Source of the DNA: an uncultured Gammaproteobacteria bacterium
Lineage (GTDB): Bacteria; Patescibacteriota; Patescibacteriia; Magasanikbacterales; GWA2-37-8
Length of the DNA stretch: 64,000 nucleotides
Direction of reading: 5' to 3'
Assembly (NCBI GenBank): GCA_964355175.1
Contig: CAYHBZ010000001.1
Span: 445 to 64,444, forward strand
The stretch's first letter is position 1. Every line of letters starts with the position of its first letter. Under the pieces are notes generated by a model, which saw nothing but the letters and a program-made list of their open reading frames with translations, made no database searches and was not told where the DNA came from. Of this stretch, positions 1,749 through 59,568 are shown one piece after another. The position numbers were made by a program, and so were the translations under genes.

Positions 1749-3515
1749 TTAGGTAGTTAAAATAGCCCTGAGTCTTTTGGTGGCTTCGGGTGCTTTGGAT
1801 CGCACTGGTCCGATGCCGCTAGCGGCTATATTTTCTACCTCAAAAACAAAAGTAACCTGTTTTTCTTCCCCTTTATTGCGCGCTTCTTGGTTTAATCTCG
1901 GAATATCAATATTATAATGTTCCCAAGTTCTTTGAATTTGTTCGGTGCTTGGGGATTGGCCCATAGGCAACTTGCGTCTGTGGGCGCGGCGTGAATAAAA
2001 AGCACTGCGTCCGCCTTCCTGTGTGTTTTTGTCTTCGCCTGCCTCATTTAATTTTTCAGAACATCGAATCTCCCGCAGGTGGCTAAGAATAATATTTTTC
2101 AAAAATTCCGCGTCTGGGGGCAGTAGTAGACCATCTTTGGTATCCGCTTGTTTAAAAGTAAAAAATTCGTCCAATAACAGTTTAAATGTAAAATTTCCGA
2201 TTTTTACAGTCACTACCGTATCGCGTTTGTTTTTAGGATCCATTTCGTAGGCGATAGCTTTGAATCCTAAATTTTTTAAATCCTCATCGGATATTTCCAA
2301 TAAATCTCCTCGAGGGGATAGAAGATATCTGGTGTCAGTTTGCATTTCTTGTACGAGTCGTTCATTTTCTTTGGCGATCAGTTCTAGTTTTTCTTGGTCA
2401 ATATTTTCTGGATGTAGATAAGCCAATGACTCCCAATAAGTTTCATCAGTTTGAGCAGTTTTATCTTTTGAATCTTTGTCTAGAGCGGTTTTTATTAGTT
2501 CGGATATATTTTGAATGTTTGAGCCGCCTTGAAAATTTGGCAATACCACGTTGATTCGTGTCTTTGATGGATCTAAGCGATTGTGCTCTTGGACAGATAA
2601 TTTTGTTACCAATTTTCTGAGGTCGCTAGGATTTTTAAATATGATGTCGTTTGGATAGCCACCGGATGTCATATCATCCATAGTCATGTTGGTGGTATCT
2701 TTTGCTCCCTTACTAAAAAGCATTTTTAGCTTACGCAATTTTACCGGGTCCCATTCTTTCTGTATATTTTGAAAAGCAATCATATTTTCTTTTTTACTCA
2801 GTGCTTGTTGCAAGCCGGTGTAATATTTATCTTTTAGTTCCGGATATTTTAGATAAATATAATAATCACGGGCGGCATCAATGTCGATTGCTTTTTTTAG
2901 TACTTCGTCATCGTTTGGAATCCAGGTGCCTAATATTAACAAAGTAAATTGTTTGGAGTCGGCGTCCATGATATTGTCAGCGTCGTTGCAGATAATTTGA
3001 GATACAAGTTTTTCTATATTCTGATTTCCACTCTTTATGCCGATCAATAATAAATTATAAACACAATCAATCATTGATTTGGAATCTTTGTTGCTACGGA
3101 GGAATTGTCTAATAAAATTTTCCGCTATATCTTTGAAAACGGTATCTTGGGCATAATAGCTAAGCCATTTTTCAATAGCGGCATTGGGCAGTGTCGGTGT
3201 TTCTTTAAAATTTATCTTTTTAATTCCTTCAATAATTTTTTCTCTGTATCGTAATACCTTGTCATAGCCAGGTAGACCGTCTATCATATCAAAGGCGGCA
3301 AATAAGCCCTCCAGCTTTTCTGGTTCAGCCGGCAGTTGAGCGGTAAATTCTTTTATTTGTTGATGAATTTGTTCTGAATTTTTATATGGGAAATCCAATA
3401 GCCAAGTTAATTCAGGCGATGTTGCAAAAAGAGATTCTTCTGGCGAATGTGGCACTCCTTCTAATTTTGGTTCTTCCGGAAAGCGAGCCATTTCTGGAAA
3501 TGGTCTAAATTTCAT
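1749..3515 (-). CDS. hypothetical protein (588 aa)
   Basis: Long uninterrupted ORF; no motif I recognise. Confidence 0.55.
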   Translation of the reverse strand: MKFRPFPEMARFPEEPKLEGVPHSPEESLFATSPELTWLLDFPYKNSEQIHQQIKEFTAQLPAEPEKLEGLFAAFDMIDGLPGYDKVLRYREKIIEGIKKINFKETPTLPNAAIEKWLSYYAQDTVFKDIAENFIRQFLRSNKDSKSMIDCVYNLLLIGIKSGNQNIEKLVSQIICNDADNIMDADSKQFTLLILGTWIPNDDEVLKKAIDIDAARDYYIYLKYPELKDKYYTGLQQALSKKENMIAFQNIQKEWDPVKLRKLKMLFSKGAKDTTNMTMDDMTSGGYPNDIIFKNPSDLRKLVTKLSVQEHNRLDPSKTRINVVLPNFQGGSNIQNISELIKTALDKDSKDKTAQTDETYWESLAYLHPENIDQEKLELIAKENERLVQEMQTDTRYLLSPRGDLLEISDEDLKNLGFKAIAYEMDPKNKRDTVVTVKIGNFTFKLLLDEFFTFKQADTKDGLLLPPDAEFLKNIILSHLREIRCSEKLNEAGEDKNTQEGGRSAFYSRRAHRRKLPMGQSPSTEQIQRTWEHYNIDIPRLNQEARNKGEEKQVTFVFEVENIAASGIGPVRSKAPEATKRLRAILTT

Positions 3516-3650
3516 ATATAAATGTCAGTTTGTTAATGCTATATATTATATCAACAATGATTAATAAAGCAATTAGTTTATATGCATCATTTTGACAAAA
3601 AAGTTATTATGGCCTAGTGTATATATAGGTTATTTTTAATTTATAAAAAT

Positions 3651-4403
3651 ATGTACGAGATTGCTCTTGTAGTTTTCTTAGTCATAGTGCTAGGTCTGCG
3701 TGTGGTCCAACAGTATGAAAAAGGCGTAGTGTTTCGCTTGGGTAAGATTATTGGTATCAAAGAACCTGGTTTAAATTGGGTAATTCCATTTATCGACCAG
3801 GTGCGCAAAGTGGATTTTCGCACCATTACTTTGCCAATTTCTCCGCAAAAAATTATTACCAAGGATAATGTATCGGTAGATGTGTCTGCCGTGGCTTATT
3901 ACAAAATCGTGGATGGTGTGAAAAGTATTGTGGCAATTGAAAATGTGATGTCCGCCATCAATCAGATTGCTCAGACTTCCGTGCGTAATATTGTTGGGCG
4001 CTTTCAATTGGATGAAATCTTGAGCGAACGCGAAGCAATTAACAAAGAAATTGCTGTAGTATTGGATGCCCATACCGAAGCCTGGGGTGTGGTGGTATCG
4101 GTAGTAGAAATCAAAGATATTGAATTGCCGGAAGGCATGCAGCGCGCCATGGCCAAACAAGCCGAAGCCGAGCGTGAAAAACGCGCCAAAATTATTGCGG
4201 CTGAAGGTGAATTCTTAGCTTCTCAAAAATTGGCCGATGCGGCCGACATTATTGCCGCTCATCCGATTGCTCTCCAATTGCGCAATTTGCAGACTATGGC
4301 CGAAATTAGTGTAGAGAAGAATTCCACTATCATCTTCCCGGCCCAAATGATGAGTACAATCTCCGATATTAAAAATTTTGTTGCCGGTGAAGGTATAAAA
4401 TAA
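3651..4403 (+). CDS. SPFH/band-7 (stomatin-like) membrane protein
   Basis: N-terminal TM followed by an SPFH core (GVVFRLGK..., RAMAKQAEAEREKRAKII coiled coil). Confidence 0.85.
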   Translation: MYEIALVVFLVIVLGLRVVQQYEKGVVFRLGKIIGIKEPGLNWVIPFIDQVRKVDFRTITLPISPQKIITKDNVSVDVSAVAYYKIVDGVKSIVAIENVMSAINQIAQTSVRNIVGRFQLDEILSEREAINKEIAVVLDAHTEAWGVVVSVVEIKDIELPEGMQRAMAKQAEAEREKRAKIIAAEGEFLASQKLADAADIIAAHPIALQLRNLQTMAEISVEKNSTIIFPAQMMSTISDIKNFVAGEGIK

Positions 4404-4449
4404 ATTATTCAAAAGCCTCGACCAGTGTTGGGGCTTTTTTGTTTTTAGG

Positions 4450-4478
4450 TTGTCAAAAAGCCGTTTTTATGCTATAGT
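4450..4478 (+). promoter_or_regulatory. sigma70-like promoter TTGTCA-N17-TATAGT
   Basis: Hexamers with a 17-nt spacer, 10 nt upstream of the ATG at 4488. Confidence 0.5.
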
Positions 4479-4487
4479 TAGTTTATT

Positions 4488-5216
4488 ATGTTTGATACTC
4501 TTCTAGTTATTTGGAATCAATTTTTGTTGATTCCGCTTGTGAACGCCTTGATCTGGATTTACAATAATTTCACTGACCACAATTTAGGCTGGGCCGTAGT
4601 ATGGCTCACGGTTTTGTTACGATTTGTTTTGTTACCGCTCACTATTATTTCTGAGCGTAATTCCGTAAAACAAGAAAAAGCTCAGGAGGAAGCCCTAGAA
4701 GCTGCTCAAGCTTTTCGTCATGATAGTATTGCCCAAAACGAGGAAATTCGTAAAATAATCAAAAGAAATAAGATCTCTCCTTGGGCCAAAGTGCTTACGT
4801 TGCTGATTCAATTACTCGTGTTAGTACTGCTTTATCAGGTGTTTGTGCGCGGTATCACCGGAGACAGACTAGCCAAAATTTTGTACCCTTCGATAGATTT
4901 TCCAGGTAAAATTAACACCAATTTTTATGGCTTTGAGATTGGTCATATCCATGATTGGATTTGGGCTGGAATAGCCGCTGTTTATATTTTTGCTTATACT
5001 GTTTTTGAAAATCGTAATCAGAAACATTGGGAAAATAGTCAGGTAGTTTTTCTATTTTTATTCCCACTATTTACCTTTACCGCGCTATGGATGTTGCCGA
5101 TGGTAAAGTCCTTGTTTATTTTGACTTCCATGGTATTTTCTGATATAATCAGCGTATTAATATATGTGCTTTTTTCCGCTAAACCCAAAGATACGGGCGG
5201 GGGAGGCCACCACTAA
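4488..5216 (+). CDS. yidC: YidC/Oxa1-like membrane insertase (short form)
   Basis: Multi-TM protein; LLRFVLLPL and KVLTLLIQLLVLVLLYQV resemble conserved YidC TM motifs. Confidence 0.55.
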   Translation: MFDTLLVIWNQFLLIPLVNALIWIYNNFTDHNLGWAVVWLTVLLRFVLLPLTIISERNSVKQEKAQEEALEAAQAFRHDSIAQNEEIRKIIKRNKISPWAKVLTLLIQLLVLVLLYQVFVRGITGDRLAKILYPSIDFPGKINTNFYGFEIGHIHDWIWAGIAAVYIFAYTVFENRNQKHWENSQVVFLFLFPLFTFTALWMLPMVKSLFILTSMVFSDIISVLIYVLFSAKPKDTGGGGHH

Positions 5217-5221
5217 AATTT

Positions 5222-5791
5222 ATGGCCGGAGATTCTTTAGATAAATTAATGTATTCGTTCGTAGTGGACGATGTTCTCAAAGGCTTTTTTATCACCGTCC
5301 CACCAGGTTATGTTGCTTGTGTCTATGATTTGGGTCGCGGTGTATTGAAAAAAGTTTTGACCCCAGGCTTACACCTCAAAATTCCTTTTTGGCAGAAAGC
5401 CAAGCTGTTTAATGTGCAGACCTTGGAATATTCCATCAATCGTCAATTCAATGTCCAAAATGAAAAAGCTTTGGGAGATATTCCAATAGCCGCTATGACC
5501 CAGGACGGTATGCGTGTGGGTGTAGAGGGGACTGTATTACTCCGCTTGGATGTTCATCAGATTCCAAGCATCTGGCAACAGATCGGTGAAGATTTTGTCG
5601 CTAAGATTATCCGCCCGACTATCCGCAGTAGAGTACGTATGGTATTTAGTAAATTTGATCAGAATGAGATCGTAAGCACCAAGCGTGACGCGGTAGAGAT
5701 GGATCTCAAAAATGAGCTCGAACGCATCTTTTATGCTCGTGGGATATATGTAGAAAATGTTCTTTTGCATGAAGTGCAGACTATAAAATAA
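5222..5791 (+). CDS. SPFH/prohibitin-like domain protein
   Basis: Band-7 core pattern (GLHLKIPF..., VLLRLDV..., ARGIYVENVLL). Confidence 0.65.
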   Translation: MAGDSLDKLMYSFVVDDVLKGFFITVPPGYVACVYDLGRGVLKKVLTPGLHLKIPFWQKAKLFNVQTLEYSINRQFNVQNEKALGDIPIAAMTQDGMRVGVEGTVLLRLDVHQIPSIWQQIGEDFVAKIIRPTIRSRVRMVFSKFDQNEIVSTKRDAVEMDLKNELERIFYARGIYVENVLLHEVQTIK

Positions 5792-49233: not shown

Positions 49234-49305
49234 TCCGAGGTAGCGCAGCGGTAGCGCAGTTGGCTGTTAACCAATTGGTCGTGGGTTCGAATCCCACCCT
49301 CGGAG
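49234..49305 (+). tRNA. tRNA-Asn (anticodon GUU)
   Basis: Manual fold; GGCTGTTAACC anticodon arm typical of Asn, T-loop TTCGAAT. Confidence 0.85.
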
Positions 49306-50769
49306 CATGTTTGCAAAATCACCCTTTTGGGTGGTTTTTGCTATCACCTCGTAAGGCATTTTAAAGCTAACGTCAGCGATATTTTGATTTTCAAAAGTAA
49401 GGTTCCAAAGTAAAATTTCTAACAACTCTCTTTTACCATCATTTTGAGAATGCAAAAATTTTATTTTGGCTTGATTAGCAGTTAAAAAGACATTTTTGAT
49501 TCGTTCCAAAGTTGATAAGGGGTTATTCGGTGATTCTTTTTGAATATCTTTTTGCTGTTTCTCGAGCGTTACCCGTTCATTGTTTAAAGCCTGTATTTTG
49601 GTCGTATAAACGTCTTCGGGTATTAAGTTGGATAAGTGGCCATCTAAGACCTTTGCTTGCTTCTGACGAACGTCGTTGAGCTGTTTTTGTATACTTTCAA
49701 CTGACAGCTGAACGTATTCAAAGCTTTTGCCTGTTTTTTCTTTATTGGCTAGATATGCCATCTCAATTAAATCAGAATCTACTGCTAGTTTATTTAAAAT
49801 TTCAGCGATTTTATTTTCAGCTTCTCGTTCTTTTAAATATTTTTTGTGTTCGTCACAAATTTTCTTGCCATTAGTACAATAATAATAGACATTTCCTTTT
49901 TTGGTACTGCAAGTTAATAAACAGCCGCAATTTTTACAGTTCATAAAACCACGAAAAGGGAAGTTGTGTTTTTCTTTTTTTGCATGCATTCTGCCAGTCA
50001 AAGCAAATTTAGTTTTTTCAAAAAGTTCTTGTGAAATAATTGGTTGATGGTTGCCAGGATATAATTGACCGTGCCATTGCATAAGTCCAGCATAAAAAGT
50101 TTCAGATAATACACGATGGATAACGCTGTGTCCAACTTTACGTCCAGCCTGAGTTCTTAATCCTTGTTTATAAAGTTTGTATTCGATATCTTTAACGCTA
50201 TATGCACCGGTAGAATATAATTTAAACATTTCTTCTACAAAATGAGCACGCTCTGGATCTGGATAAACAGTTTTGTCACCTTTGTTATTTAAATAACCAA
50301 AGGGCGCATAAGAAGGCCATCCACCTTGTCTTAACTTCTCTTGATTTCCACGCTTTACATTTACACTTAAATCACGAACAAACTGATTCGCCATACCAAA
50401 TTCAAACGTCATCAAAAGTACATTGTCGGTTGGAAAATAAGTTCTATCGTGGGCTCGAATTTCTTGCACTATACTTTTTTGAAGAATCCAATTTATGGCA
50501 CCACCATCGACAGGGTTTCTTGCTAAGCGATCCAGTTTCCACACATAAAGAACACAAGGATTATTTAATTTAATATAATCCATCATTTCTTGAAACACTG
50601 GTCGCCCTGGTTCTTTCGCAGACATGCTCTCACAAAAAATCCTATCTAAGATAACACCCTCACGAGCCGCCTTTGTTTGTATTTCGTTTACTTGAGCGTC
50701 AATAGACAAGGATTGTTTCTCTTCTGATTCGGAAGATTTACGACAGTAAGCGAGGTATTTCATATTCAA
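49267..50769 (-). CDS. large serine recombinase (integrase)
   Basis: N-terminal resolvase domain (YCRKSSESEEKQSLSIDAQ, catalytic Ser), recombinase domain, Zn-ribbon CKNCGC...YYYC, coiled-coil C-terminus. Confidence 0.85.
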   Translation of the reverse strand: MNMKYLAYCRKSSESEEKQSLSIDAQVNEIQTKAAREGVILDRIFCESMSAKEPGRPVFQEMMDYIKLNNPCVLYVWKLDRLARNPVDGGAINWILQKSIVQEIRAHDRTYFPTDNVLLMTFEFGMANQFVRDLSVNVKRGNQEKLRQGGWPSYAPFGYLNNKGDKTVYPDPERAHFVEEMFKLYSTGAYSVKDIEYKLYKQGLRTQAGRKVGHSVIHRVLSETFYAGLMQWHGQLYPGNHQPIISQELFEKTKFALTGRMHAKKEKHNFPFRGFMNCKNCGCLLTCSTKKGNVYYYCTNGKKICDEHKKYLKEREAENKIAEILNKLAVDSDLIEMAYLANKEKTGKSFEYVQLSVESIQKQLNDVRQKQAKVLDGHLSNLIPEDVYTTKIQALNNERVTLEKQQKDIQKESPNNPLSTLERIKNVFLTANQAKIKFLHSQNDGKRELLEILLWNLTFENQNIADVSFKMPYEVIAKTTQKGDFANMLRGWDSNPRPIG

Positions 50770-50772
50770 AAA

Positions 50773-51723
50773 TTAAAATTCAGGTAATTCAATCGGTCTT
50801 TTATTATTATCATAAGCCTCTTGATCCAGTTTTGTCGGAACGGTTTCGAGAATATCATAACCAGTAATATCAAGAAAGGCAAGTAGCTGTTTTAAAATAT
50901 CAGGATTATTAATTAGATTATAACGCTTATAATCAAGTAAAGGTATATACCCTTCGGTCTTTTTATCAGAGTGGTATTCAAGTGTTTCAGGTGGAACGAA
51001 ATCCAACAACTCATTGATTTGATCATCAAAATATACGAAGCGAGGTTTTTTAAGTTGTTTGCTAACAAAATAACATTTTTTACCGTGTAAGCGAGAATCA
51101 TCAAAATTTTTTGACATATACTTTGACATATACCTAATTATCTTTTTAAGTTCATCCACATTTTTGGTACTTTTAACATTTATAAATCCTTGTCCCCATA
51201 CCTCAACAATTTTCTTTTTAATATCACTGATAAATGGAAGGTTGAAAAACATAATATGATAATGAATAGCCCCACGCTTTTGAAACTCGATAACCACAAT
51301 GTATCTCAGAAAACTCTTTTTATTTTTGGTAATAAAGAAATTAAGACGTTGAATATATTTAGTAAATTCATAATTAGCAAATTTGATGTCAGTAATATTA
51401 TCTCCGAAAGTAAGGGTAATAAACAGCGGGGGATCAATGTGTCCATATGAATCAGGCCAAGCATAGGCATTGCAGTTGATATGATCGTGAAATTGACGTT
51501 TGGCACGCCATAGACGTTGTTGTTTGGCTAATTCTTTATCTACATCTTCTACCCCTGTCTTTTCAACTCTCTCTTTCTTTTCCTTTTCTGGTCTACCACC
51601 AACAAAAAAGTCTTTGCCAAAAAGACGAACCTCAATAACTGCTCCGCAGATTTTTAACTGTTTATCAGTTTTGTAATATAATTTTTCACCATTAAATTTT
51701 GATTTAGCCCAATTACTTAGCAT
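50773..51723 (-). CDS. rolling-circle replication initiator (HUH endonuclease, phiX174 gpA-like superfamily I Rep)
   Basis: Motif I FITLTF, motif II HYHIMFF (HUH), motif III YMSKYMSK (two catalytic Tyr, YxxKY). Confidence 0.75.
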   Translation of the reverse strand: MLSNWAKSKFNGEKLYYKTDKQLKICGAVIEVRLFGKDFFVGGRPEKEKKERVEKTGVEDVDKELAKQQRLWRAKRQFHDHINCNAYAWPDSYGHIDPPLFITLTFGDNITDIKFANYEFTKYIQRLNFFITKNKKSFLRYIVVIEFQKRGAIHYHIMFFNLPFISDIKKKIVEVWGQGFINVKSTKNVDELKKIIRYMSKYMSKNFDDSRLHGKKCYFVSKQLKKPRFVYFDDQINELLDFVPPETLEYHSDKKTEGYIPLLDYKRYNLINNPDILKQLLAFLDITGYDILETVPTKLDQEAYDNNKRPIELPEF

Positions 51724-51749
51724 ATTTATAAATTGTTTATCTGATTATG

Positions 51750-51843
51750 TGTATAGTGAATCAAGTCCAACTACCTATACACAATGGCACAGGAAATAAA
51801 ATTAGATTTATGATTATTTGCCTTGCCTTTGGCAAGGCAAATA
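51750..51843. other. candidate replication-origin hairpins next to the rep gene
   Basis: TGTGTATAG...CTATACACA inverted repeat (51750-51785) and a perfect 12-bp palindrome ATTTGCCTTGCC-TTT-GGCAAGGCAAAT (51817-51843). Confidence 0.35.
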
Positions 51844-52184
51844 ATATTTCAGTGGCCTATAGACCTCTACAGGTTCGCTCCGCTCTCACGGCCACCGACC
51901 ACCACATACAGTCCTTTAATAAAAAACTACCTTCTGTAGGAAAACTCTGCTCTCGCGGAACACAGTTAATGCTTTTCGAACCAATCACATAGTTTAGCGA
52001 GCGAATCCAAATACTCATTGGCCTGTTCGTTCGTTATATCCAAACCATATCTACTTTTGAAATAGACAATAAGACGTCGGCGAAGAGGTTCGGAATAATT
52101 AAATAAAAAAGCCATAGTTTTAAATATATGGCTTCTACTCTATATTGTTTATTTAAAAACGTATAAGGCGGAATTGGTTTCTGA

Positions 52185-52838
52185 TTATGTCTTATTCTTT
52201 AATCTCTTAATAATTTTGGAAATATCATTATAGCCTACAGTAGTTGAAGGGTAGTTGTCTTTTACATTTCTTACTATTTTTTTCGCTGTCAGACCTTCTT
52301 TTTTTAAAAAGAGTATAAACATATCACGAGGATAGTTTTTCGATATCCGCAAATCTTTTTCCTTCACTTTATAAAATTCTTGCTTTGCTTTATTAATTTT
52401 AAGCCACCGTTTTTGAATATCTTTTATCGTTGTATCAGGATAAATCGGTATCGCTAAAATACCATCTTCTTTTTTTTCAGCACCATAAATAAAACAAGCC
52501 GGAGTTTGTAGTATAAATCTATCACACCATTTATGTGTAACACAACCAAAAATCACAATACTAAATAATATCGGAATTGATTTAGATCCAAGTTGGTATT
52601 TCTTTTGTAAAAAAATCAATTCCTTCTCAAGGGTTGGCCAATTTTCTTTGGTAATAATTTCTTTGGATGAATCCCGAGAAAGGTAGGTTTCGCCACCTCT
52701 TTTAATTATTGGGACAAATATTTTTGCAATTTCTTTAGTATCTTTATCAAATTTTTCATCTATTTGATGAAGAGCTAATACTCTCGCAAGAGCTTTCTTA
52801 TCAAATGTTTCTTCCCACCATTTTGTATTAAATTTCAT
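52185..52838 (-). CDS. hypothetical protein of the integrated element
   Basis: 217-aa ORF with a possible HTH-like C-terminus; no recognisable family. Confidence 0.5.
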   Translation of the reverse strand: MKFNTKWWEETFDKKALARVLALHQIDEKFDKDTKEIAKIFVPIIKRGGETYLSRDSSKEIITKENWPTLEKELIFLQKKYQLGSKSIPILFSIVIFGCVTHKWCDRFILQTPACFIYGAEKKEDGILAIPIYPDTTIKDIQKRWLKINKAKQEFYKVKEKDLRISKNYPRDMFILFLKKEGLTAKKIVRNVKDNYPSTTVGYNDISKIIKRLKNKT

Positions 52839-52907
52839 AGTGAATTTACTGTATCACAAGTAAAAACTCTTTAAAAGAGGAGGGAAACACATTGTTGTTT
52901 ACTGTAG

Positions 52908-53555
52908 CTATTTCTTATTATATTCAATTTTGGCTACCTTAACTATTCCATCCGCCACTCTGTCCAAATATTTATCAATAACAAAATTTGGGTACCGTAT
53001 TGTTTTAAAACCTTTTTTAACTGAATAGTACGATCTGTAATAATCGGATTCAATTTGTTTTGGATCTGTATAATGTTGAATTCCATCGATTTCAATATTG
53101 ATTCTTGCCCACGGAATAGCTATATCAATGTGTTTATACCCATCCCATTTTTCTAACTCACATTTTATACCTCTTGATTCTAAAGCAGTGTGCAAAGCTT
53201 TTGCTTGTGGTGTTGACGAACTTGTGTTTATTTTTGCGATATTATGAATTTTGTCTGGTTTTATAGTGACTACCATCTGCTCAATATCCGCATTGAGATT
53301 TTTATAGCTAGCCAAAATTTTATCCGCTTTCTTTTTGTTCCAAATTTTAAATGCTATATAACCAGCAATTAACAAAACAAGAATAATACTTATTACAATA
53401 AACCAACGCCAAAAAGTTATTTTATCCGTATAAAAAATATACAAAATATAAATTAGGCCAAAAAGTAATAAAATACCTAATGGGTTATCAGTGTCATAAT
53501 CATAAAAATCTTCATCATCATTGTAGTGTCTATATTTTCTTCGGTATTTACCCAT
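52908..53555 (-). CDS. membrane-anchored DUF559/Vsr-like (PD-(D/E)xK) endonuclease domain protein
   Basis: TM segment, then GIKCELEKWDGYKHIDIAIPWARINIEIDGIQHY matching the DUF559 core. Confidence 0.6.
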   Translation of the reverse strand: MGKYRRKYRHYNDDEDFYDYDTDNPLGILLLFGLIYILYIFYTDKITFWRWFIVISIILVLLIAGYIAFKIWNKKKADKILASYKNLNADIEQMVVTIKPDKIHNIAKINTSSSTPQAKALHTALESRGIKCELEKWDGYKHIDIAIPWARINIEIDGIQHYTDPKQIESDYYRSYYSVKKGFKTIRYPNFVIDKYLDRVADGIVKVAKIEYNKK

Positions 53556-53825
53556 ATATATAATAATTGGGTAACAAAAAAGGCTACCCGTAACTCTGGC
53601 GGCTCCTTGCGAAGCCCAACAGCCTTTCGACTGCTGACTGGAAAAACAATACCAGAGACGGCGTAGCCATCTCTATGTTTTTCCAGATTTTTGACCATAC
53701 CCGACGGAATTCGACGGGGTTAGGTCTGTTGAATTGTAAAGATAGTATATATTATCTACTTATTTTTATCAACACTTGACACTAATTTTAGTTACTGTAT
53801 AATACTCCTATTCCTTGGTGGAGTA

Positions 53826-55472
53826 TTGGTATCAAAATTGATATCGATCACAGAAACCAAATACAATCTTACTGGTCGATTTGTATTTGATCTCGAACAC
53901 CTTCCAAGGGTGTTTATTTATTTTTTAGTATCCTTTATGGATATTGAAATAACAAAAAATTATATGGATCAATTTACTTCAAATCACCCAAATGCAGCAA
54001 GATTACTCACTTCATTGCGAAACACAGGTTATGATAGTCGAACAGCGATAGAAGACATAATCGACAATTCTATCGATGCTGGTTCGCGTATTATTAATAT
54101 AAATATTAACACTGTTGATAAAGAATCTCGAGTTGTCATTTCAGATGATGGGTCTGGAATGTCACTTCAGATTTTAGACGAAGCTTTAAAATTGGGATCG
54201 GCTACCGAAAAAGACGAAATGTCTGATTTGGGAAAATATGGCATGGGCCTTTGTACAGCTTCTATTTCGATGGCAAAGAGACTTAAAGTAATAACAACAA
54301 CAAACGGACTTGAGTATCTTACTAGTATTCAGGATCTTGATGACGTGGTTAAGGCTAACGATTTTATAAAGGAATTACGTGGCGCAAATACCGATGAAAT
54401 TTCATTGTTCAAAGAATTCGTTAAAGGCGACCATGGAACAGTTGTAATTCTTACAAAGATCGATCGATTGTCTAATGAAAATCTTAGTATATTTTCAGCA
54501 AGTTTAGCCAAAGAGGTCGGTCGTATTTTTCGAAAATTTATTGAATCCGGAATTCAATTTACCATGAATGGAAAAAAGATTGAGTCAGTTGATCCTCTTA
54601 TGTTAGATCAAAAAGGTACGCAAGTATATTCAGACGAAGAATACGAAGTGCCTGTTTCAAACGGTAAAGAAAAAATTCGAGTAAAAGTTGTTATATTGCC
54701 TGATGTAAATGAAGAACTAGAGAAAGAACTTAAGATGAATATCCAGTCGCAAGGTTTCTATTTATTAAGAAATAATCGAGAAATTGCAAACGGCGAGGCA
54801 CTTGATGTATTTAGAAAGCATAACGATTACAATCGTTTGCGAATTGAGCTTTCTTTTACTTCAAATATGGATAATGAAATGGGTGTTCGGTTTACTAAAG
54901 ATGGGGTAAGTCCAAATCAAGCTATAAGCGATTATCTCAAAAGTGAGATTGGAGGACAGGTAGCATCAATCCGAAAAATATTAAAACCAAAGTTTGCTGA
55001 CAAATCAAAAGAAATTGACCATGAGGAGTCTGCAGCTGTTATTGCAAGAAAATCAAAATTGCTTATTACACCAGAAGCCATTATTGAAAAAAGAGAACCA
55101 AAAATGAATGATGGGGCCAAAAAAGAAAAAAACGAGAATGATGAAAAAAGAGAGCGGGTGCCTAACAAAACACGACTTTCTTCAAGAGGGCTTGGTGCAC
55201 GTTTTGAAACTTCATCAATGGGCAGAGAAGGTGCGTTGTACGATTGTTACCAAGAAGGAAAAGTAGTTGTTATACGTTGGAACGTGGATCATCCTTTTTA
55301 TGAAAAGATTATTCTATTAAATAAAGACCGAAAGGATATAACAGCAGGAATAGATTTTCTCATTTATGCCTTAGCTTCAGCGGAGCTTAAAACTACTAAT
55401 GATGATAATGCTGAATTAATAAGTACAATTAAATCAATAATGTCTGCAAACCTAAGAGCCTTGTTGTCTTAA
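53826..55472 (+). CDS. MORC-like GHKL (Bergerat-fold) ATPase
   Basis: N box IEDIIDNSIDAGS, G1 DDGSGMS, G2 GKYGMGL, MORC-like GFYLLRNNREI S5 region; the true start may be the internal ATG at 53937. Confidence 0.7.
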   Translation: MVSKLISITETKYNLTGRFVFDLEHLPRVFIYFLVSFMDIEITKNYMDQFTSNHPNAARLLTSLRNTGYDSRTAIEDIIDNSIDAGSRIINININTVDKESRVVISDDGSGMSLQILDEALKLGSATEKDEMSDLGKYGMGLCTASISMAKRLKVITTTNGLEYLTSIQDLDDVVKANDFIKELRGANTDEISLFKEFVKGDHGTVVILTKIDRLSNENLSIFSASLAKEVGRIFRKFIESGIQFTMNGKKIESVDPLMLDQKGTQVYSDEEYEVPVSNGKEKIRVKVVILPDVNEELEKELKMNIQSQGFYLLRNNREIANGEALDVFRKHNDYNRLRIELSFTSNMDNEMGVRFTKDGVSPNQAISDYLKSEIGGQVASIRKILKPKFADKSKEIDHEESAAVIARKSKLLITPEAIIEKREPKMNDGAKKEKNENDEKRERVPNKTRLSSRGLGARFETSSMGREGALYDCYQEGKVVVIRWNVDHPFYEKIILLNKDRKDITAGIDFLIYALASAELKTTNDDNAELISTIKSIMSANLRALLS

Positions 55473-55519
55473 TCGGCTGGCCCCCTTAATTGGGGGTCTT
55501 TTTTTAATATATATACAAT

Positions 55520-56404
55520 ATGACTGATCAAAATATAATTCAACAAGATTCGCTGGAGCCACATTTGTCGGTCGTTGTTAGTGGTAATTTGGTGGAGCCG
55601 ACACACGACGCCTTTATAGAACAATTAACTGGTGGAAAAAGCAAAAAATACGTCAGATTCGTAATTGCCGCGTTAAGTAGTATTCCTTGGGTGGGTGGTG
55701 TAATCGGAGCAGTAGCAGGTTATAGTGCTGAAAAGGATCAGGAAAAAATCAATATACTACAAAAATTATGGCTTGAGGAACATAGAGAGAAAATAAAAGA
55801 ATTGACGAATACCTTTGCTGAAATTTTTGGCAGATTAGATAGTTTTGGAGACGAAGTGCAACAACGGATCGAGTCACCGGAATACTTGTTATTAGTCAAG
55901 AAAAATTTTCGTATTTGGGACCAAGCGGACACAAACGACAAAAGAGAAATGTTAAAAAAACTTATAACAAATGCTGGCGCAATATCGTTATGCCCGGATG
56001 ATTTAATCAGGCTTTTTATCAGTTGGATTGATTTATATCACGAAGCTCATTTCTCGATAATCAAAGAAATTAATAAAAATCCAGCAATAACTCGAGGGTC
56101 AATATGGGAAGAAATTCATGGTGAAATACCACGTGAAGATTCCGCAGAAGCTGATTTGTATCGTTTATTAATTAGCGATCTTAGTATCGGACGTGTAATT
56201 CGTCAAGCAAGAGACACGGATATGCACGGCAGATTTTTAAAGAAAAGTCGTACCGGCCAATCTCGTAGTCGCTCGTCTGGCATAATGGAATCTGCATTTG
56301 AAGACACCAAACCATATGTGCTAACTGAACTTGGTACGCAATTCGTACATTACGTTATGAAAGACGTGGTGCCAGAGATTGGGACAGGTAACATCTCACC
56401 ATAA
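55520..56404 (+). CDS. hypothetical membrane-associated protein, partner of the GHKL ATPase
   Basis: 294 aa, one TM (FVIAALSSIPWVGGVIGAVAGY); same strand and short gap to the GHKL gene. Confidence 0.5.
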   Translation: MTDQNIIQQDSLEPHLSVVVSGNLVEPTHDAFIEQLTGGKSKKYVRFVIAALSSIPWVGGVIGAVAGYSAEKDQEKINILQKLWLEEHREKIKELTNTFAEIFGRLDSFGDEVQQRIESPEYLLLVKKNFRIWDQADTNDKREMLKKLITNAGAISLCPDDLIRLFISWIDLYHEAHFSIIKEINKNPAITRGSIWEEIHGEIPREDSAEADLYRLLISDLSIGRVIRQARDTDMHGRFLKKSRTGQSRSRSSGIMESAFEDTKPYVLTELGTQFVHYVMKDVVPEIGTGNISP

Positions 56405-56512
56405 TAAAATCTTTCTAAAGTCGTCTAAGACATCCAGAAATAGAAAAAAACGACTTACAATCAATGGTTGATAGCTTTGGTAGGTGAGTTGGTTAATATA
56501 AATATGTCTATA

Positions 56513-56558
56513 GTTTAGCCAAATACCGTCCAATCTCATCCCACATGTAGAGCCAACG
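56513..56558. repeat. ~45-bp direct repeat, copy A (copy B at 57288-57335), flanking a high-GC sub-insert
   Basis: TTAGCCAAATACCGTCCAATCTCATCCCACATGTAGAGCCAA versus TTAGCCAACCACATTCCAATTTCATCCCACAACCAGAGCAAT, about 80% identical. Confidence 0.55.
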
Positions 56559-56767
56559 TGCACGAACAGAAGCGAAAGCTTCTGTTTTTTGTTCAACCAT
56601 ACGGGTTTTTATCAATTATCTCTTACAATCTTTTTTATGCATATATCATTGACAAAACCAACCAAATCATGGTAAGTTTATCTATTCCAAAAACCACACT
56701 TCGTGGATATGGGATCTCCGCCGTGAGAGGGTCGCGGTCAACCAAAGTTCTGAACAAGGAGCATGTC

Positions 56768-57253
56768 ATGCTGGCACGTTTGCAAAAGTACATCCAGGCT
56801 CAAGGGTTCCGTGTCCACGAAATGGCCGAATTGGCCCCTGGCGTGATCGTCGTCCACGACAACTACGGCGAACACGGCGGAGAGTTTGATGCCTACATCG
56901 ACGCTGAAGCCATCGGGCCGACGCAACCGGAAATCTGGGGAGAGGAAGGCCTCGTAACTCCTGGTCTCAAGGGCACTGGCCTCGGCGTCTTGCAGGGCGT
57001 TGCCTTCGGGTCCCCCCCCCAAGAGCGTTTTGCAGTTCTTCCAGGCCGCGCCCCAGCTCCTGACCGGCAAGCAGGCGCCGATCTCCTGGTACGAAGCGCC
57101 CCAGCCGCTCGAAGTCCCGCAGGACATCCGGGCGTGAGCCACATCCGGGTCTTACCAACCCAGGCAGAGCTAGGGTTCTCGGATCCTCGCTCTCGCTGTC
57201 TGAATATTAAATTAGTATTTGGACAACGCGAGCGATTCGAGATTTATATATAA
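56768..57253 (+). pseudogene. high-GC ORF with its own AAGGAG RBS; the C-terminal half reads as a frameshifted product after a C9 homopolymer
   Basis: ~62% GC; SD AAGGAG 7 nt before the ATG; the N-terminal ~80 aa are protein-like, after C9 (57012-57020) it becomes Pro/Ala/Arg-rich; a convergent minus-frame ORF is also protein-like. Confidence 0.35.
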
Positions 57254-57290
57254 AATCCAACCATTTTTATGGTTGGATTTTTATTTTGTA
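57252..57290 (+). terminator. terminator hairpin AAATCCAACCA-loop-TGGTTGGATTT with a T-run
   Basis: Perfect 11-bp stem followed by TTTTATTTT. Confidence 0.7.
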
Positions 57291-57489
57291 TTAGCCAACC
57301 ACATTCCAATTTCATCCCACAACCAGAGCAATTCAAAAATAGGCGGTGCATTAAGTTTAGGTTACTGCCTTTGCAAGTTAGTTGGTCTCGCTAAGTTTAT
57401 TATTTTTTGGTATACTGAGTAAGTTGATAAGAAATAATATTTTGTACAGGTGGCTTAATTTATTATATTCAAAGTAGATACTTCATAAT

Positions 57490-58200
57490 ATGATATACTC
57501 TTTTAAAAAATTGACGGACCTGCAAAGGAAAATATGTCTTAAAACCATTAGCCCAAAAGCGATATATGCTATAGTCGGCGATGCAATAATAAACCGTAAA
57601 AGCATCTCTATAGTTAGAATGGGTGATGGAGAGTGTAAAATATTAAGTGCAGACAAAGCTAAGCCATTTACGGATTTTAATCATACGCACAAAGATTGGA
57701 ATAAAAGGTTGGGCATCGAAGGCATTTCCATTGATGTTTTACAAAAAAATATTCTAGAAGCCGGAAACAAATGTACTTACTTCGCACCCTCGATTTCTGG
57801 TGTTTTTATACCTGAATATCATTTATATAATTTTTTTAAACCACGCCCGTATTATTTTGATAATTTTTATGTAAACGACTGGACTACGGGGATGATCAAA
57901 ATGCTTTTAGAGGCCAGTGACGGTATTTTTATTATACATAGAGATTATAAAAAAATTATTAGTAATTTTAAAAAAAATATAATTTGCGACAAAAAAATAA
58001 AGTTTGACGGCTTTCCTAAAAACAATTGGGATGATAATGATCAAGCGATTGATATGGCAGTTAAATCCGGTATGCAGTTAATTCTTTTTAGTGGTGGCCC
58101 TAGCGGAAAAGTCATTGGACCAGAAATTGCAAAGGCTAAGAATAAAATAGTGTTGGATGTTGGAAACACATTGATGTCTTGGAGTATAAAAGCAAGCTGA
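57490..58200 (+). CDS. DUF1792 (GT-D type glycosyltransferase-like) protein
   Basis: SIVRMGDGECKIL matches the DUF1792 hallmark. Confidence 0.45.
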   Translation: MIYSFKKLTDLQRKICLKTISPKAIYAIVGDAIINRKSISIVRMGDGECKILSADKAKPFTDFNHTHKDWNKRLGIEGISIDVLQKNILEAGNKCTYFAPSISGVFIPEYHLYNFFKPRPYYFDNFYVNDWTTGMIKMLLEASDGIFIIHRDYKKIISNFKKNIICDKKIKFDGFPKNNWDDNDQAIDMAVKSGMQLILFSGGPSGKVIGPEIAKAKNKIVLDVGNTLMSWSIKAS

Positions 58201-58251: not shown

Positions 58252-59568
58252 ATGCTTACTGGATTATTTACAAAATTAGTATTGTCGATTATTTTTGGCG
58301 CAATCATCGGTTTGGAGCGTGAGGGGAGTAAACAGGGCGCCGGAGCTATTGGTGGGATGCGGACATATTCTTTGTTTGCTTTGATGGGCGCTTTGACCGG
58401 CGTATTTTTTATCCATAATTTTTCTTCTCTAGCGCTTTTGGTAGTTGGAGGGTTTTTAGTTTTATTGATTTCTTATTACATCGTTGGTTCTTCGGCCACT
58501 CATGATTTTGGTATGACCAGTGAACTGTCAGCTATAATCACTTATTTGATTGGTTTGTTATTGATGTTGGATATCATACCTTTGCAAATTACTGTCGCCA
58601 TTTTTGTCATACTAATGCTTATTTTGTCTATGAAATCTAAGACTGGCCAAATCGTGGCCGGTGTTTCTAGGCAAGAATTACAATCATTTATTAGCTACGC
58701 TATTATCGCGCTGGTGGTCTTGCCGTTTTTACCTGATGTTGCTTACAAATTAAATGATCTCCCTATCTTACCAACAATTTTACAAGGCTTAAATGTGGAT
58801 TTGGGTCAGTTTAATACTTTAGATTTAATTAATCCCAGAAAAATTTGGATGGTGGTGGTGCTGATTACCGGCATTGATGTTTTTGGATATATTTTAGGCA
58901 GGATCGTTGGAAACAAAAAAGGTTTTGCGTTGACCAGTTTTATTGCCGGTTTTATTTCTTCCACCTCTGCTACTCAATCTTTGGCGCAAAAGAGCAAAAA
59001 AACCGGTTTTGTTAATCATCTAGTTGGGGCCGCAGTTTTAGCCAACATGGCCAGTTTTTTACAAATATTTTTATTAGTCGGCCCGCTTAATCCCAAGTGG
59101 CTTATTTCAATTGCGCCCAGTATTCTAATCATGATTTTTACCGCCGGTTTGAGTGCTATGATTTTTTTGAGGAAGAAAGAACCTGAGAAACAAGAAGAAA
59201 AGGAGCAGACAAAAACCGAAAAAATATTTTCTCTCATGCCAGCTCTAAAGTTTGCTGGTATTTTAATTGTTATTAAAATTGTGACAAAAGTTTGTTTAAT
59301 TTTATTCGGAGAATCCGGCTTTGTGATCAGCTCGGTTATCGCTTCTTTTGCCGGGATAGACGCAATTTTGGTCAACTTGGCGGAAATGGCCGGTCAGACT
59401 ATTACCTTTAAATTTGCTTTTATCACTTTCTTGCTGGTTAATGCCACTAATTTGTTAAGTAAAGTAGTTTATTCTTTTTTACAGGGAGATCGACGTTTTG
59501 CTCTTAAATTTTTGGTGGCGGCTGTGTTTATTGTAGCGGCTAGTTCAGTTTGGTTATTTTTTATATAA
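58252..59568 (+). CDS. MgtC/SapB N-terminal domain fused to a DUF4010 membrane domain
   Basis: GLEREGSKQGAGAIGGMRTYSL MgtC motif; ~10 TM segments. Confidence 0.65.
   Translation: MLTGLFTKLVLSIIFGAIIGLEREGSKQGAGAIGGMRTYSLFALMGALTGVFFIHNFSSLALLVVGGFLVLLISYYIVGSSATHDFGMTSELSAIITYLIGLLLMLDIIPLQITVAIFVILMLILSMKSKTGQIVAGVSRQELQSFISYAIIALVVLPFLPDVAYKLNDLPILPTILQGLNVDLGQFNTLDLINPRKIWMVVVLITGIDVFGYILGRIVGNKKGFALTSFIAGFISSTSATQSLAQKSKKTGFVNHLVGAAVLANMASFLQIFLLVGPLNPKWLISIAPSILIMIFTAGLSAMIFLRKKEPEKQEEKEQTKTEKIFSLMPALKFAGILIVIKIVTKVCLILFGESGFVISSVIASFAGIDAILVNLAEMAGQTITFKFAFITFLLVNATNLLSKVVYSFLQGDRRFALKFLVAAVFIVAASSVWLFFI

Follow-up and report, generated by a model that had tools for sequence, protein, structure and literature searches.

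A probable integrative rolling-circle element with a large serine recombinase at a tRNA-Asn gene of Candidatus Magasanikbacteria

Introduction

Islands driven by large serine recombinases (LSRs) at the 3' end of ssrA in Dehalococcoides carry the LSR gene at attL, beside the 3' end of the tRNA-like gene, have a far boundary with a copy or mimic of that gene end, and stack in tandem downstream (DsiB; McMurdie et al. 2011, PMC3146451). The pSAM2-type integrative and conjugative elements of actinomycetes (AICEs), with the gene order int-xis-repSA-tra, are ~10 kb long, integrate at tRNA genes, excise and encode a rolling-circle replication initiator (Rep). Plasmids of the pC194/pUB110 kind and phiX174 gpA provide the HUH Rep motifs I-III, two tyrosines and a CTTGAT origin directly upstream of rep, while phage integrases such as A118/LI, Bxb1 and phiC31 join resolvase, recombinase and zinc-ribbon domains and have their attP beside or within int. 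Traits of each of these systems recur at a locus in a 64,000-nucleotide (nt) stretch of contig CAYHBZ010000001.1, which we refer to as the window and from whose first letter all positions are counted, where an integrated element lies next to a tRNA-Asn gene.

The host is Candidatus Magasanikbacteria (Patescibacteria), since thousands of orthologues of the DUF6938 gene in the left flank bear that name. We think it likely, and hold this with good confidence, that positions 49307-56553 are an integrative rolling-circle element whose LSR recombines attP with attB at the 3' terminus of the tRNA and whose Rep copies the excised circle.

Results

Recombinase, Rep and origin form a one-directional backbone

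A preliminary description of the window, made from its letters, had proposed a single non-viral element of ~8 kb integrated at tRNA-Asn, with a serine recombinase, a phiX-type Rep and cargo. An integrated element of this composition is indeed present, with a Rep of the two-tyrosine HUH class, but the integrated DNA resolves into two units, a 7.25-kb autonomous element and a 0.78-kb cassette (Table 1). The backbone of the larger unit reads in one direction in the order orf49 (an open reading frame, ORF, of 49 codons), origin, rep, LSR and attP, and the LSR starts 3 bases downstream of the end of the Rep ORF.

Both parts expected of an LSR were recovered in the recombinase. The N-terminus is a resolvase domain (PF00239 at 3e-16, residues 7-150) whose sequence ..AYCRKSSESEEKQ.. 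is a serine nucleophile motif of the Y-x-R-x-S-S type, and it is followed by a recombinase domain (PF07508 at 8e-14) and a zinc ribbon (PF13408 at 5e-5), the last with 24.0 bits, slightly below the 25.3 cutoff. The protein also matched the PHROG integrase family phrog_95 at 5e-76 (residues 1-466) and, weakly, NCBIfam models of the XisF/CcrB type.

Rep contains motif I (FITLTF, residues 101-106), motif II (HYH, 154-156) and motif III (YMSKY, 198-202, with two catalytic tyrosines), all three of which had been pointed out in the preliminary description; T103, T105, F106, H154, H156, Y198, K201 and Y202 are invariant in a 25-sequence alignment. The label "phiX-type" holds at the level of motifs and origin, but the Pfam family is REP_ORF2-G2P rather than Phage_GPA or Phage_CRI. 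Searches returned 1049 homologues at E <= 1e-5, and the nearest named relative is a Brevibacillus borstelensis plasmid Rep (35% identity).

A candidate double-strand origin precedes rep. The block is conserved upstream of rep in the window and in two related loci (L092 and L093), variants of the form ACTTGAT(A/T)......ACACTTAATCAGA stand immediately before rep in many loci of the family, and the conserved form of the motif is ACTTGAT...ACAC...AATCAGA. Rep thus appears to have a putative cognate origin, with a nick-site consensus near its gene, and would nick at ACTTGATTCAC / GGACTTGATTCACTATAC. We take the motif to resemble the phiX174 origin CAACTTGATATTAATAACAC. The pC194 origin likewise contains CTTGAT (PMC7072734). 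Upstream of the origin, orf49 is a candidate directionality factor or copy-control protein, and the 81-aa ORF on the opposite strand is probably spurious.

Small circular contigs of 1.3-5.7 kb, recognized by terminal repeats of 44-127 nt (14-144 nt for the IMG/VR contigs), encode Reps of the same family and no LSR. The presence of related Reps on small contigs with terminal direct repeats fits free rolling-circle plasmids, and it bears on the alternative that the window holds an integrative mobilizable element whose Rep is mainly a relaxase for transfer by helper conjugation and not a replicase. HUH Reps are related to relaxases, the window Rep has weak Pfam similarity to RepSA of pSAM2, and streptococcal mobilizable elements reportedly pair serine integrases with Rep-like mobilization proteins, all of which would suit such an element. 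However, the circular contigs fit autonomous plasmid replication, genes for a coupling protein, an FtsK-like Tra or a type IV secretion system are all absent from the element by Pfam and PHROG, and to our knowledge Patescibacteria generally lack conjugation systems. We consider a mobilizable element improbable and retain replication of the circle as the likely role of Rep.

The recombinase ORF runs into tRNA genes throughout a family of elements

As the preliminary description had observed, the LSR ORF reads into the 3' end of tRNA-Asn: the overlap measures 40 nt, counting the stop codon, and lies antisense to positions 34-73 of the tRNA, which extend from the anticodon loop to the 3' end. The same layout recurs in other Patescibacteria. 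Scans with a Rep alignment yielded two sets of 80 loci, one from species-representative genomes and one from JGI metagenomes, in which an LSR homologue lies directly downstream of Rep 55 and 54 times, respectively. The LSR ORF ends inside an antisense tRNA gene for 64 of the 88 full-length LSR matches beside a Rep. The targets comprise 18 isoacceptors for Gln, Ser, Asn, Trp, Gly, Lys, Leu, Asp, Pro, Glu, Tyr, Arg and Val, and the backbone of Rep, LSR and antisense tRNA, with its layout, is found at well over 100 Patescibacteria loci. We found no description of Rep-LSR elements in Patescibacteria in the literature, although the absence of a record is no proof. Two relatives are particularly informative: L093 occupies the same host neighborhood as the window element and encodes a Rep and an LSR that are 55% and 70% identical to those of the window, whereas L092 has a nearly identical recombinase end (the P' arm), yet is located at tRNA-Trp.

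In nearly all members the LSR ORF crosses the T-arm in the ..DSNP.. frame and then continues for 10 to 181 nt to a chance stop codon. This variable tail length indicates that reading into the tRNA is a by-product of an ORF that has no stop of its own before the element ends. The overlap follows from the position of attP within the 3' end of the gene and is no proof of a crossover in the tRNA body. In the excised circle, the LSR ORF would be expected to end in ...FANMLYMWDEIGRYLAKL in place of ...FANMLRGWDSNPRPIG.

Far-end repeats resemble attP arms that mimic the tRNA T-arm

Two repeats near the far end had been described as ~45 bp long and as a possible degenerate attR resembling the tRNA 3' end. 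The repeats are present, at 39 nt each and 79% identity, and are the sole occurrences of their motif in the window. In the window together with 1.09 Mb of family loci, a regular expression for the motif matched 46 times in tRNA sense and 3 times in antisense. It matched 42 times versus 3 times in a second, independent locus set, and not at all in 64 kb of host-only loci; because of this strand bias and the lack of matches in host-only DNA, the repeats are not due to chance. The motif always lies beyond rep, on its far side, usually with a hairpin and a T-run next to it.

Within the motif, a T-loop-like GTTC(C/G)AA is followed by 5 nt and then by TCCCAC..GC, where the tRNA reads GGTTCGAATCCCAC..GC. 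The last few bases of the stretch resembling the T-stem and acceptor match those that end the target tRNA, and the nucleotides adjoining the core follow the target: ..GGAGC for Asn, ..CTCCGC for Ser and ..CCCTGC for Trp. The extra ~5 nt after the T-loop-like part were seen in seven loci (L026, L028, L029, L070, L008, L093 and the window). For example, L026 has CCGTTCCAAGTGCGTCCCACCCTCTCCGCA in its P arm versus GGTTCGAATCCCTCACTCTCCGCA in its tRNA, and L028 has CCGTTCCAAGTTCGTCCCTCCTTCTCCGCA versus GGTTCGAATCCCTCCTTCTCCGCA, with the proximal 16 nt identical; L029, L070 and L008 show the same arrangement.

Both window repeats and the far end of L093 share TTAGCCAA..AC..TCC.AT..CATCCCACA....GAGC followed by a hairpin and T-run. 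In the tRNA-Asn of L093, however, both the T-stem (GTCGG/CCGAC) and the acceptor stem differ, and the 5' half of that tRNA carries changes that compensate. Since L093 has the CATCCCACA..GAGCA motif despite its differing tRNA, the motif is not a copy of the local tRNA end but is carried by the element, contrary to the degenerate copy first suggested. On these comparisons, we read the far-end repeats as element-borne left (P) arms of attP that mimic the T-loop, T-stem and acceptor end of the tRNA. Aligning the tRNA 3' end with the downstream sequence, the check that had been recommended for locating an att core, gave no exact or near-exact copy: no match to the 3' 19-mer of tRNA-Asn with <=5 mismatches occurs downstream in the window. 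A 14-nt match with 1 mismatch at 56774-56787 is at chance level and overlaps a ribosome-binding site and start codon.

GAGC are the only bases common to five junctions, namely three from the window (attL and both P arms) and two from L093 (attL and its P arm). For a Listeria integrase, Rutherford et al. found that attB, compared with attP, has its zinc-ribbon (ZD) motif "shifted by 5 bp toward the center", such that this distal recognition motif lies 5 bp further from the center in attP, as in the phage integrases named above (PMC3783163). The 5-nt offset between P arm and tRNA fits the ZD rule if the tRNA end is the left half of attB, the motif is the left half of attP and the crossover lies to the right of both; by sequence, the rule thus appears to hold here. 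We infer that the crossover falls at the tRNA 3' terminus (GAGC/A), that the tRNA-Asn stretch from the T-loop to the 3' end serves as the B arm of attB, and that attL consists of tRNA plus P' and attR of a P arm plus the old terminator. The P' arm is nearly identical in L093 and L092 from GCAAAATCACCC on.

The LSR would accordingly recombine an attP made of the P arm and the P' arm in its own 3' coding end with an attB made of the last ~22 nt of the tRNA and the terminator. With a crossover at the 3' terminus, the mature tRNA would stay host-encoded and the element would bring a new terminator. After excision, Rep would nick the origin and copy the circle in the manner of pC194/phiX174-type plasmids.

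Alternatively, the crossover could lie inside the T-loop, in which case the element would supply the 3' part of the tRNA and the far-end repeats would be decayed copies of the original tRNA 3' end. This is how the ssrA islands insert (PMC3146451), and exact direct repeats of 17-37 nt, from the T-loop to the tRNA 3' end, do exist in L008, L026, L028, L029 and L070; moreover, in L089 the repeat 150 nt after tRNA-Asn matches an L086-type tRNA end rather than its own. In the window, however, not only is the 19-mer copy missing, but the acceptor-like 7-mers of the repeats are unable to pair with the tRNA 5' strand, and the L093 motif persists although its own tRNA differs at those positions. Ser-type loci have a conserved P arm upstream of the exact repeat, and the GC-rich unit with its repeat also stands alone in L089, which has neither Rep nor LSR there. 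A T-loop crossover therefore seems unlikely to us for the window, and crossover at the 3' terminus remains our preferred reading.

The GC-rich unit just mentioned was seen at several sites. Its copies (L089:11474-11640, L008:5433-5567, and the ends of the L026, L028, L029 and L070 elements) measure ~150 nt and have 59-69% G+C. Behind the unit, 17-20 nt repeat the tRNA 3' end exactly, from the T-loop onward, and in Ser-, Asp- and Gln-type loci the unit is found beyond the P arm. The L089 unit, alone after tRNA-Asn, is 81% identical to the L008 copy at tRNA-Asp, and some copies start with the reverse complement of the T-loop and T-stem. The unit is a candidate for a small independent insertion or a structured RNA.

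Host relatives carry the left flank without the element

Exact-protein look-ups of the GT-D-like protein just beyond the element and of DUF6938 (from its GTG start) gave no identical record, so the question of an empty site was answered through homologues of the left flank. In contigs whose DUF6938 orthologues are 87%, 79% and 75% identical (L083-L091), the upstream gene order and tRNA-Asn are preserved, and neither Rep nor LSR is present in any of these three sets of host relatives. A terminator hairpin follows tRNA-Asn directly in L083 and L086, while L089 has, after the tRNA, the GC-rich unit of 150 nt and then the tRNA end repeated. Two findings had been named in the preliminary description as speaking against it, namely the same genes at this locus in related genomes with no empty variant, and a Rep or recombinase without a match to its hidden Markov models; neither was seen, because relatives without the insert exist and both proteins match their families (PF23343 for Rep; PF00239 and PF07508 for the recombinase).

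On the right, the MgtC/DUF4010 gene is shared with L089 at core-gene-like identity and is therefore a host gene. The right boundary rests on the P-arm motif and on MgtC as a host gene, since the right flanks of the relatives are rearranged; host sequence would start at 57330, and the GT-D-like gene is a candidate host gene at most. L001, an independent-assembly contig, ends ~280 nt beyond tRNA-Asn.

The tRNA-Asn(GUU) gene of the closest relatives is split in the anticodon loop (GT/T) by a group I intron (Rfam RF00028, 81 and 72.5 bits; L083:11439-11975, L085:2399-2670 and L088:9180-9425). In one lineage the insert measures ~537 nt and contains a 103-aa HNH-like ORF, in another it measures ~250 nt and has no ORF, and the tRNA-Asn copies of the window and L089 are intron-free. 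The split in L083 falls exactly at the position of the LSR stop codon and was considered as a crossover point; it was ruled out, being the group I intron in the anticodon loop. Several contigs with Patescibacteria-type elements (L003, which is JALOBP010000100.1, L012, L014, L025, L027 and others) are binned as Methanoregula, Gammaproteobacteria, Bdellovibrionales or Nautiliales; these labels are likely binning or taxonomy errors and not true hosts.

The comparison with relatives also bears on the idea that the element has lost its mobility and is now a fixed remnant island, or that it is a defective single-stranded DNA prophage. The variable cargo of its relatives and the remnant-like unit that follows the element would suit a remnant, as would the outcome of a search of JGI metagenomes for the excised form, which gave no match. 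The predicted attP junction reads CATCCCACATGTAGAGC[A/C]TGTTTGCAAAATCACCC, and the restored site would read CCCACCCTCGGAGC[A/C]ACGTGCACGAACAGAAGC or ...GGAGC[A]ATTCAAAAATAGGCGG. Yet none of the LSR, Rep and orf49 products is truncated and the catalytic motifs are intact, the origin is conserved, as are both att-type junctions, and the element is missing from hosts with an 87%-identical flanking protein. As to a prophage of the Microviridae or other single-stranded DNA phages, Pfam and PHROG scans of the eight ORFs in 49267-57253 gave no structural or virion match, in line with the lack of a capsid gene noted at the outset. We see little probability in a remnant or defective prophage, and continue to regard the element as a probably intact integrative one.

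Several observations nonetheless weigh against an intact element that inserts at the tRNA 3' terminus. The region 3' of tRNA-Asn is rearranged in every relative, L083 also lacks the GT-D-like and MgtC genes, and no relative examined has an empty site with the right-hand flank of the window, so that the relatives without the insert that had been sought were found for the left side only. The predicted attP junction had 0 matches in the JGI metagenomes, a collection that probably does not include this organism. Neither a recombination directionality factor nor a single-strand origin was recognized in the element. Elements of the Ser and Asp subfamilies repeat 18-20 nt of the tRNA 3' end exactly, ~200 nt beyond the P arm and behind a GC-rich unit, and this could instead point to a T-loop crossover there. 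Lastly, serine integrases canonically recombine only attP with attB, and recombination of attP with attL is not expected of them, a rule that does not account for the arrays described below.

P arms bound a cassette in the window and arrays in relatives

The second P arm lies 776 bp further out than the first, and the simplest explanation is tandem accretion at a single site. LSR-driven islands at the ssrA 3' end of Dehalococcoides provide a precedent for such accretion (PMC3146451). Between the two repeats is a patch with ~59% G+C in a genome of ~35% G+C. It corresponds to a 655-bp unit (56633-57287) with a TTGACA/TAAGTT promoter, an ORF of 161 aa (or 122 aa) and a terminator, which is 91% identical in DNA sequence to L228:1837-2490 and 87% identical to L229:1109-1754, two metagenomic contigs with unrelated gene contexts and, like the window, from AT-rich genomes. 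Its ORF has 4 protein relatives among 5.8 billion sequences, and the unit had 0 matches in plasmid and phage collections. The possibility that the patch is the GC-rich terminal unit of the family was ruled out, as there is no sequence similarity.

Other loci carry longer series. We found 2-5 P arms spaced by 0.4-2 kb in L032:1233-6359, L041:4627-6022, L037:3204-5994, L072:5532-7175, L159:684-2237, L189:4044-6344 and L216:3380-6843, and attP-like P/P' junctions in L031, L033, L048, L219 and L227. In the eight loci examined (including L032, L041, L037 and L072), an interval mostly holds one ORF that nearly fills it and ends in a P-arm motif and terminator hairpin. The encoded proteins include HD hydrolases, a metallo-beta-lactamase fold, dCMP deaminase, a cupin, a receiver domain, an MFS transporter and Ham1. 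By their organization these intervals look like gene cassettes, and window positions 56554-57329 fit one such cassette closed by the second P arm.

LOOT RNA precedes nuclease-fold genes in the cargo

The cargo includes a copy of the LOOT RNA (Rfam RF03000), which matched the model over its full length (1-121) with 85.1 bits against a gathering score of 46.4, above the threshold of the family. The window copy has a fold z-score of -7.9, a promoter-like -10 box upstream, a U-tract downstream and long-range pairing. Of 11 further loci, 4 had Rfam LOOT matches. With a covariance model made from five copies, 1.14 Mb yielded 13 matches, each of which lies on the far side of rep and 10 of which lie 1-3.5 kb from it; host-only loci yielded 0, and the second locus set plus 12 IMG/VR loci yielded 8 more. 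Copies are located in L004, L005, L009, L019, L041, L054, L055, L070, L072, L092, L148, L151, L152, L154 and L163.

Sixteen well-scoring copies were examined. Each has a -10-like box just upstream, and in 15 of 16 a U-tract follows 15-25 nt past the Rfam model; likewise, a same-strand ORF starts <=58 nt from the model end in 15 of 16. The apex of the long central hairpin pairs with the 10 nt that precede the U-tract (9-10 of 10) in 10 of 15 copies, and the paired bases of apex and 3' extension co-vary between loci, with a small bulge needed for the window type. The proteins encoded downstream have DUF2726, Mrr_cat, TnsA_N-like or, in the window, DUF559 domains, most with an N-terminal membrane segment; we take all four domains to have the PD-(D/E)XK nuclease fold. 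The window protein matched PF04480 at 1.3e-5 (25.4 bits versus a cutoff of 20.6). We consider two readings of LOOT the most likely, an RNA switch coupled to a terminator and an RNA antitoxin that would counter the nuclease-like protein. A function as single-strand origin was ruled out: the strand of LOOT relative to rep varies (8 same and 4 opposite in 12 loci), and for this reason LOOT is unlikely to be a replication origin, whereas its place 5' of a same-strand ORF is steady. A literature search did not find a functional study of LOOT (RF03000), which does not prove that none exists.

The remaining genes are a cargo pair on the other strand and a semi-conserved backbone ORF. The GHKL ATPase matched PF13589 at 7e-26 and PADLOC MzaB at 2e-32, but its NCBIfam MzaB score of 134 bits is far under the 850 cutoff; a start at 53964 is backed by the gene call in L001. 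The searches recovered the MzaB-like ATPase alone and no other component of the Mza anti-phage system (MzaA-E). Homologues of the 294-aa partner, 41% identical, occur without the ATPase in Falkowbacteria elements (L020 and L034). The ATPase and the 294-aa protein (53826-56404) are possibly a two-gene defense module, and the cargo as a whole, comprising LOOT with its nuclease-fold gene and the ATPase with its partner, probably serves defense or addiction. Weak homologues of the 217-aa ORF lie just upstream of rep in ten loci (L015, L022, L009, L054, L007, L154, L149, L176, L192 and L160), and a match in L166 lies ~7 kb from rep. The L093 element has other cargo (2138-5782), which encodes a DNA methylase fused to LexA/S24, a Vsr endonuclease and a protein with DUF8370/DUF8371; close relatives show a high turnover of cargo.

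Table 1. Coordinates of the element, its parts and its flanks in the 64,000-nt window.
Feature	Position	Strand	Size	Description
tRNA-Asn(GUU)	49234-49306	+		ARAGORN; Rfam RF00005, 73.9 bits; gene intact
LSR (integrase)	49267-50769	-	500 aa	PF00239, PF07508, PF13408, phrog_95; gene caller puts start at 50763
attL core GAGC/A (putative)	49303-49307	+		Junction of host B arm and element P' arm
Element 1	49307-56553		7247 bp (7.25 kb)	Probable integrative rolling-circle element in Candidatus Magasanikbacteria chromosome
P' arm hairpin and T-run	49315-49339	+		Inside LSR 3' coding end; replaces tRNA terminator, as read from sequence
HUH Rep	50773-51723	-	316 aa	PF23343 REP_ORF2-G2P, 5e-22; phrog_3419 'rolling circle DNA replication initiation', 2e-23
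Candidate double-strand origin (nick site)	51735-51771	-		GTTGGACTTGATTCACTATACACATAATCAGATAAAC; CTTGAT at 51760-51765; 43 nt 5' of rep start codon
orf49	51966-52115	-	49 aa	Just upstream of rep in ~55 loci (tblastn); gene-called in L001
ORF	52185-52838	-	217 aa	Semi-conserved backbone gene; no Pfam, PHROG or NCBIfam match
TM-DUF559 protein	52908-53555	-	215 aa	N-terminal transmembrane (TM) segments; C-terminal DUF559 (Vsr-like, PD-(D/E)XK fold); downstream of LOOT
LOOT RNA with 3' extension ending in U-tract	53570-53731	-		Rfam RF03000 model at 53601-53726
GHKL ATPase (HATPase_c_3), MzaB/MutL-like	53826-55472	+	502 aa from 53964	Likely true start 53964
ORF	55520-56404	+	294 aa	Downstream partner of ATPase; no Pfam, PHROG, PADLOC or NCBIfam match
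P arm 1 (repeat D1a)	56515-56553	+	39 nt	attR junction of 7.25-kb element; hairpin and T-run after
Cassette and second P arm	56554-57329		~0.78 kb (776 bp)	Directly beyond element 1
Cassette between P arms	56554-57290	+		Contains GC-rich (~59%) promoter-ORF-terminator unit 56633-57287 (GC profile)
P arm 2 (repeat D1b)	57291-57329	+	39 nt	Outermost attR-type junction
GT-D-like gene	57490-58200			Just beyond element; no counterpart in any relative examined
MgtC/DUF4010 gene	58252-59568			Downstream flank; shared with L089 at core-gene-like identity

Discussion

Mobile elements of the candidate phyla radiation are poorly described, and the family presented here offers a compact integration and replication module, defined in sequence by LSR, attP, attB, Rep and origin, that might become a genetic tool for organisms currently without any. 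Nature here provides an example of the structural model by which serine integrases tell their sites apart, in an attP that mimics a T-arm at an offset of 5 bp, and this also hints at how tRNA targets can shift. The link between LOOT and these elements gives an orphan Rfam family a genomic context and testable hypotheses.

A broader proposal, which we put forward tentatively and consider somewhat more apt to fail than to hold, is that Patescibacteria may have an LSR-based gene-capture system at tRNA 3' termini. Rep-LSR elements would supply the recombinase, a T-arm-mimicking attP would serve many tRNAs, and the same sites would bound accreting, integron-like cassette arrays, with LOOT, which many of these elements carry, acting as a terminator-coupled switch or RNA antitoxin for a membrane-anchored PD-(D/E)XK nuclease.

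Among known systems, the Dehalococcoides islands differ in that they have no rolling-circle Rep, reportedly do not replicate independently, use a second small recombinase (DsiA) and are much larger; they insert in the T-loop with a 20-bp exact repeat and have ssrA as their sole target (PMC3146451). The window element and its family have, in contrast, one LSR, a Rep with an origin, 18 tRNA targets, an imperfect mimic with 5 additional nt and a crossover that we place at the 3' terminus. Unlike pSAM2, in which a tyrosine integrase rebuilds the tRNA 3' end and an FtsK-like protein mediates transfer, the window element has a serine recombinase; of the tyrosine integrase, Xis and FtsK-like Tra that mark pSAM2-type AICEs, it thus lacks the defining set, with no FtsK/Tra domain in any ORF by Pfam, PHROG or NCBIfam. 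The pC194/pUB110 plasmids and phiX174 do not integrate, whereas in the window the Rep operon is joined to an LSR and att sites. Compared with the phage integrases, the window system is non-phage, its LSR ORF has no stop of its own before the crossover, and the left arm of its attB is the universally conserved tRNA T-arm, so that one clade uses many tRNAs.

The relatives of the window element also recall integrons, in that arrays of mostly single-ORF cassettes, each closed by a motif resembling a recombination site, adjoin a recombinase platform. They differ from integrons in having no IntI tyrosine recombinase, no recognized attC hairpin and no Pc promoter, and in their sites, which would be serine-integrase attP half-sites with terminators, and the window itself has one cassette; the serine recombinase is the only recombinase found in the element, and attI/attC were not searched for. 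If mobile, the cassette arrays of the relatives would be a second kind of gene-cassette system beside integrons. The parts of the element are ordinary members of known protein and RNA families, and their combination is near several known kinds and the same as none.

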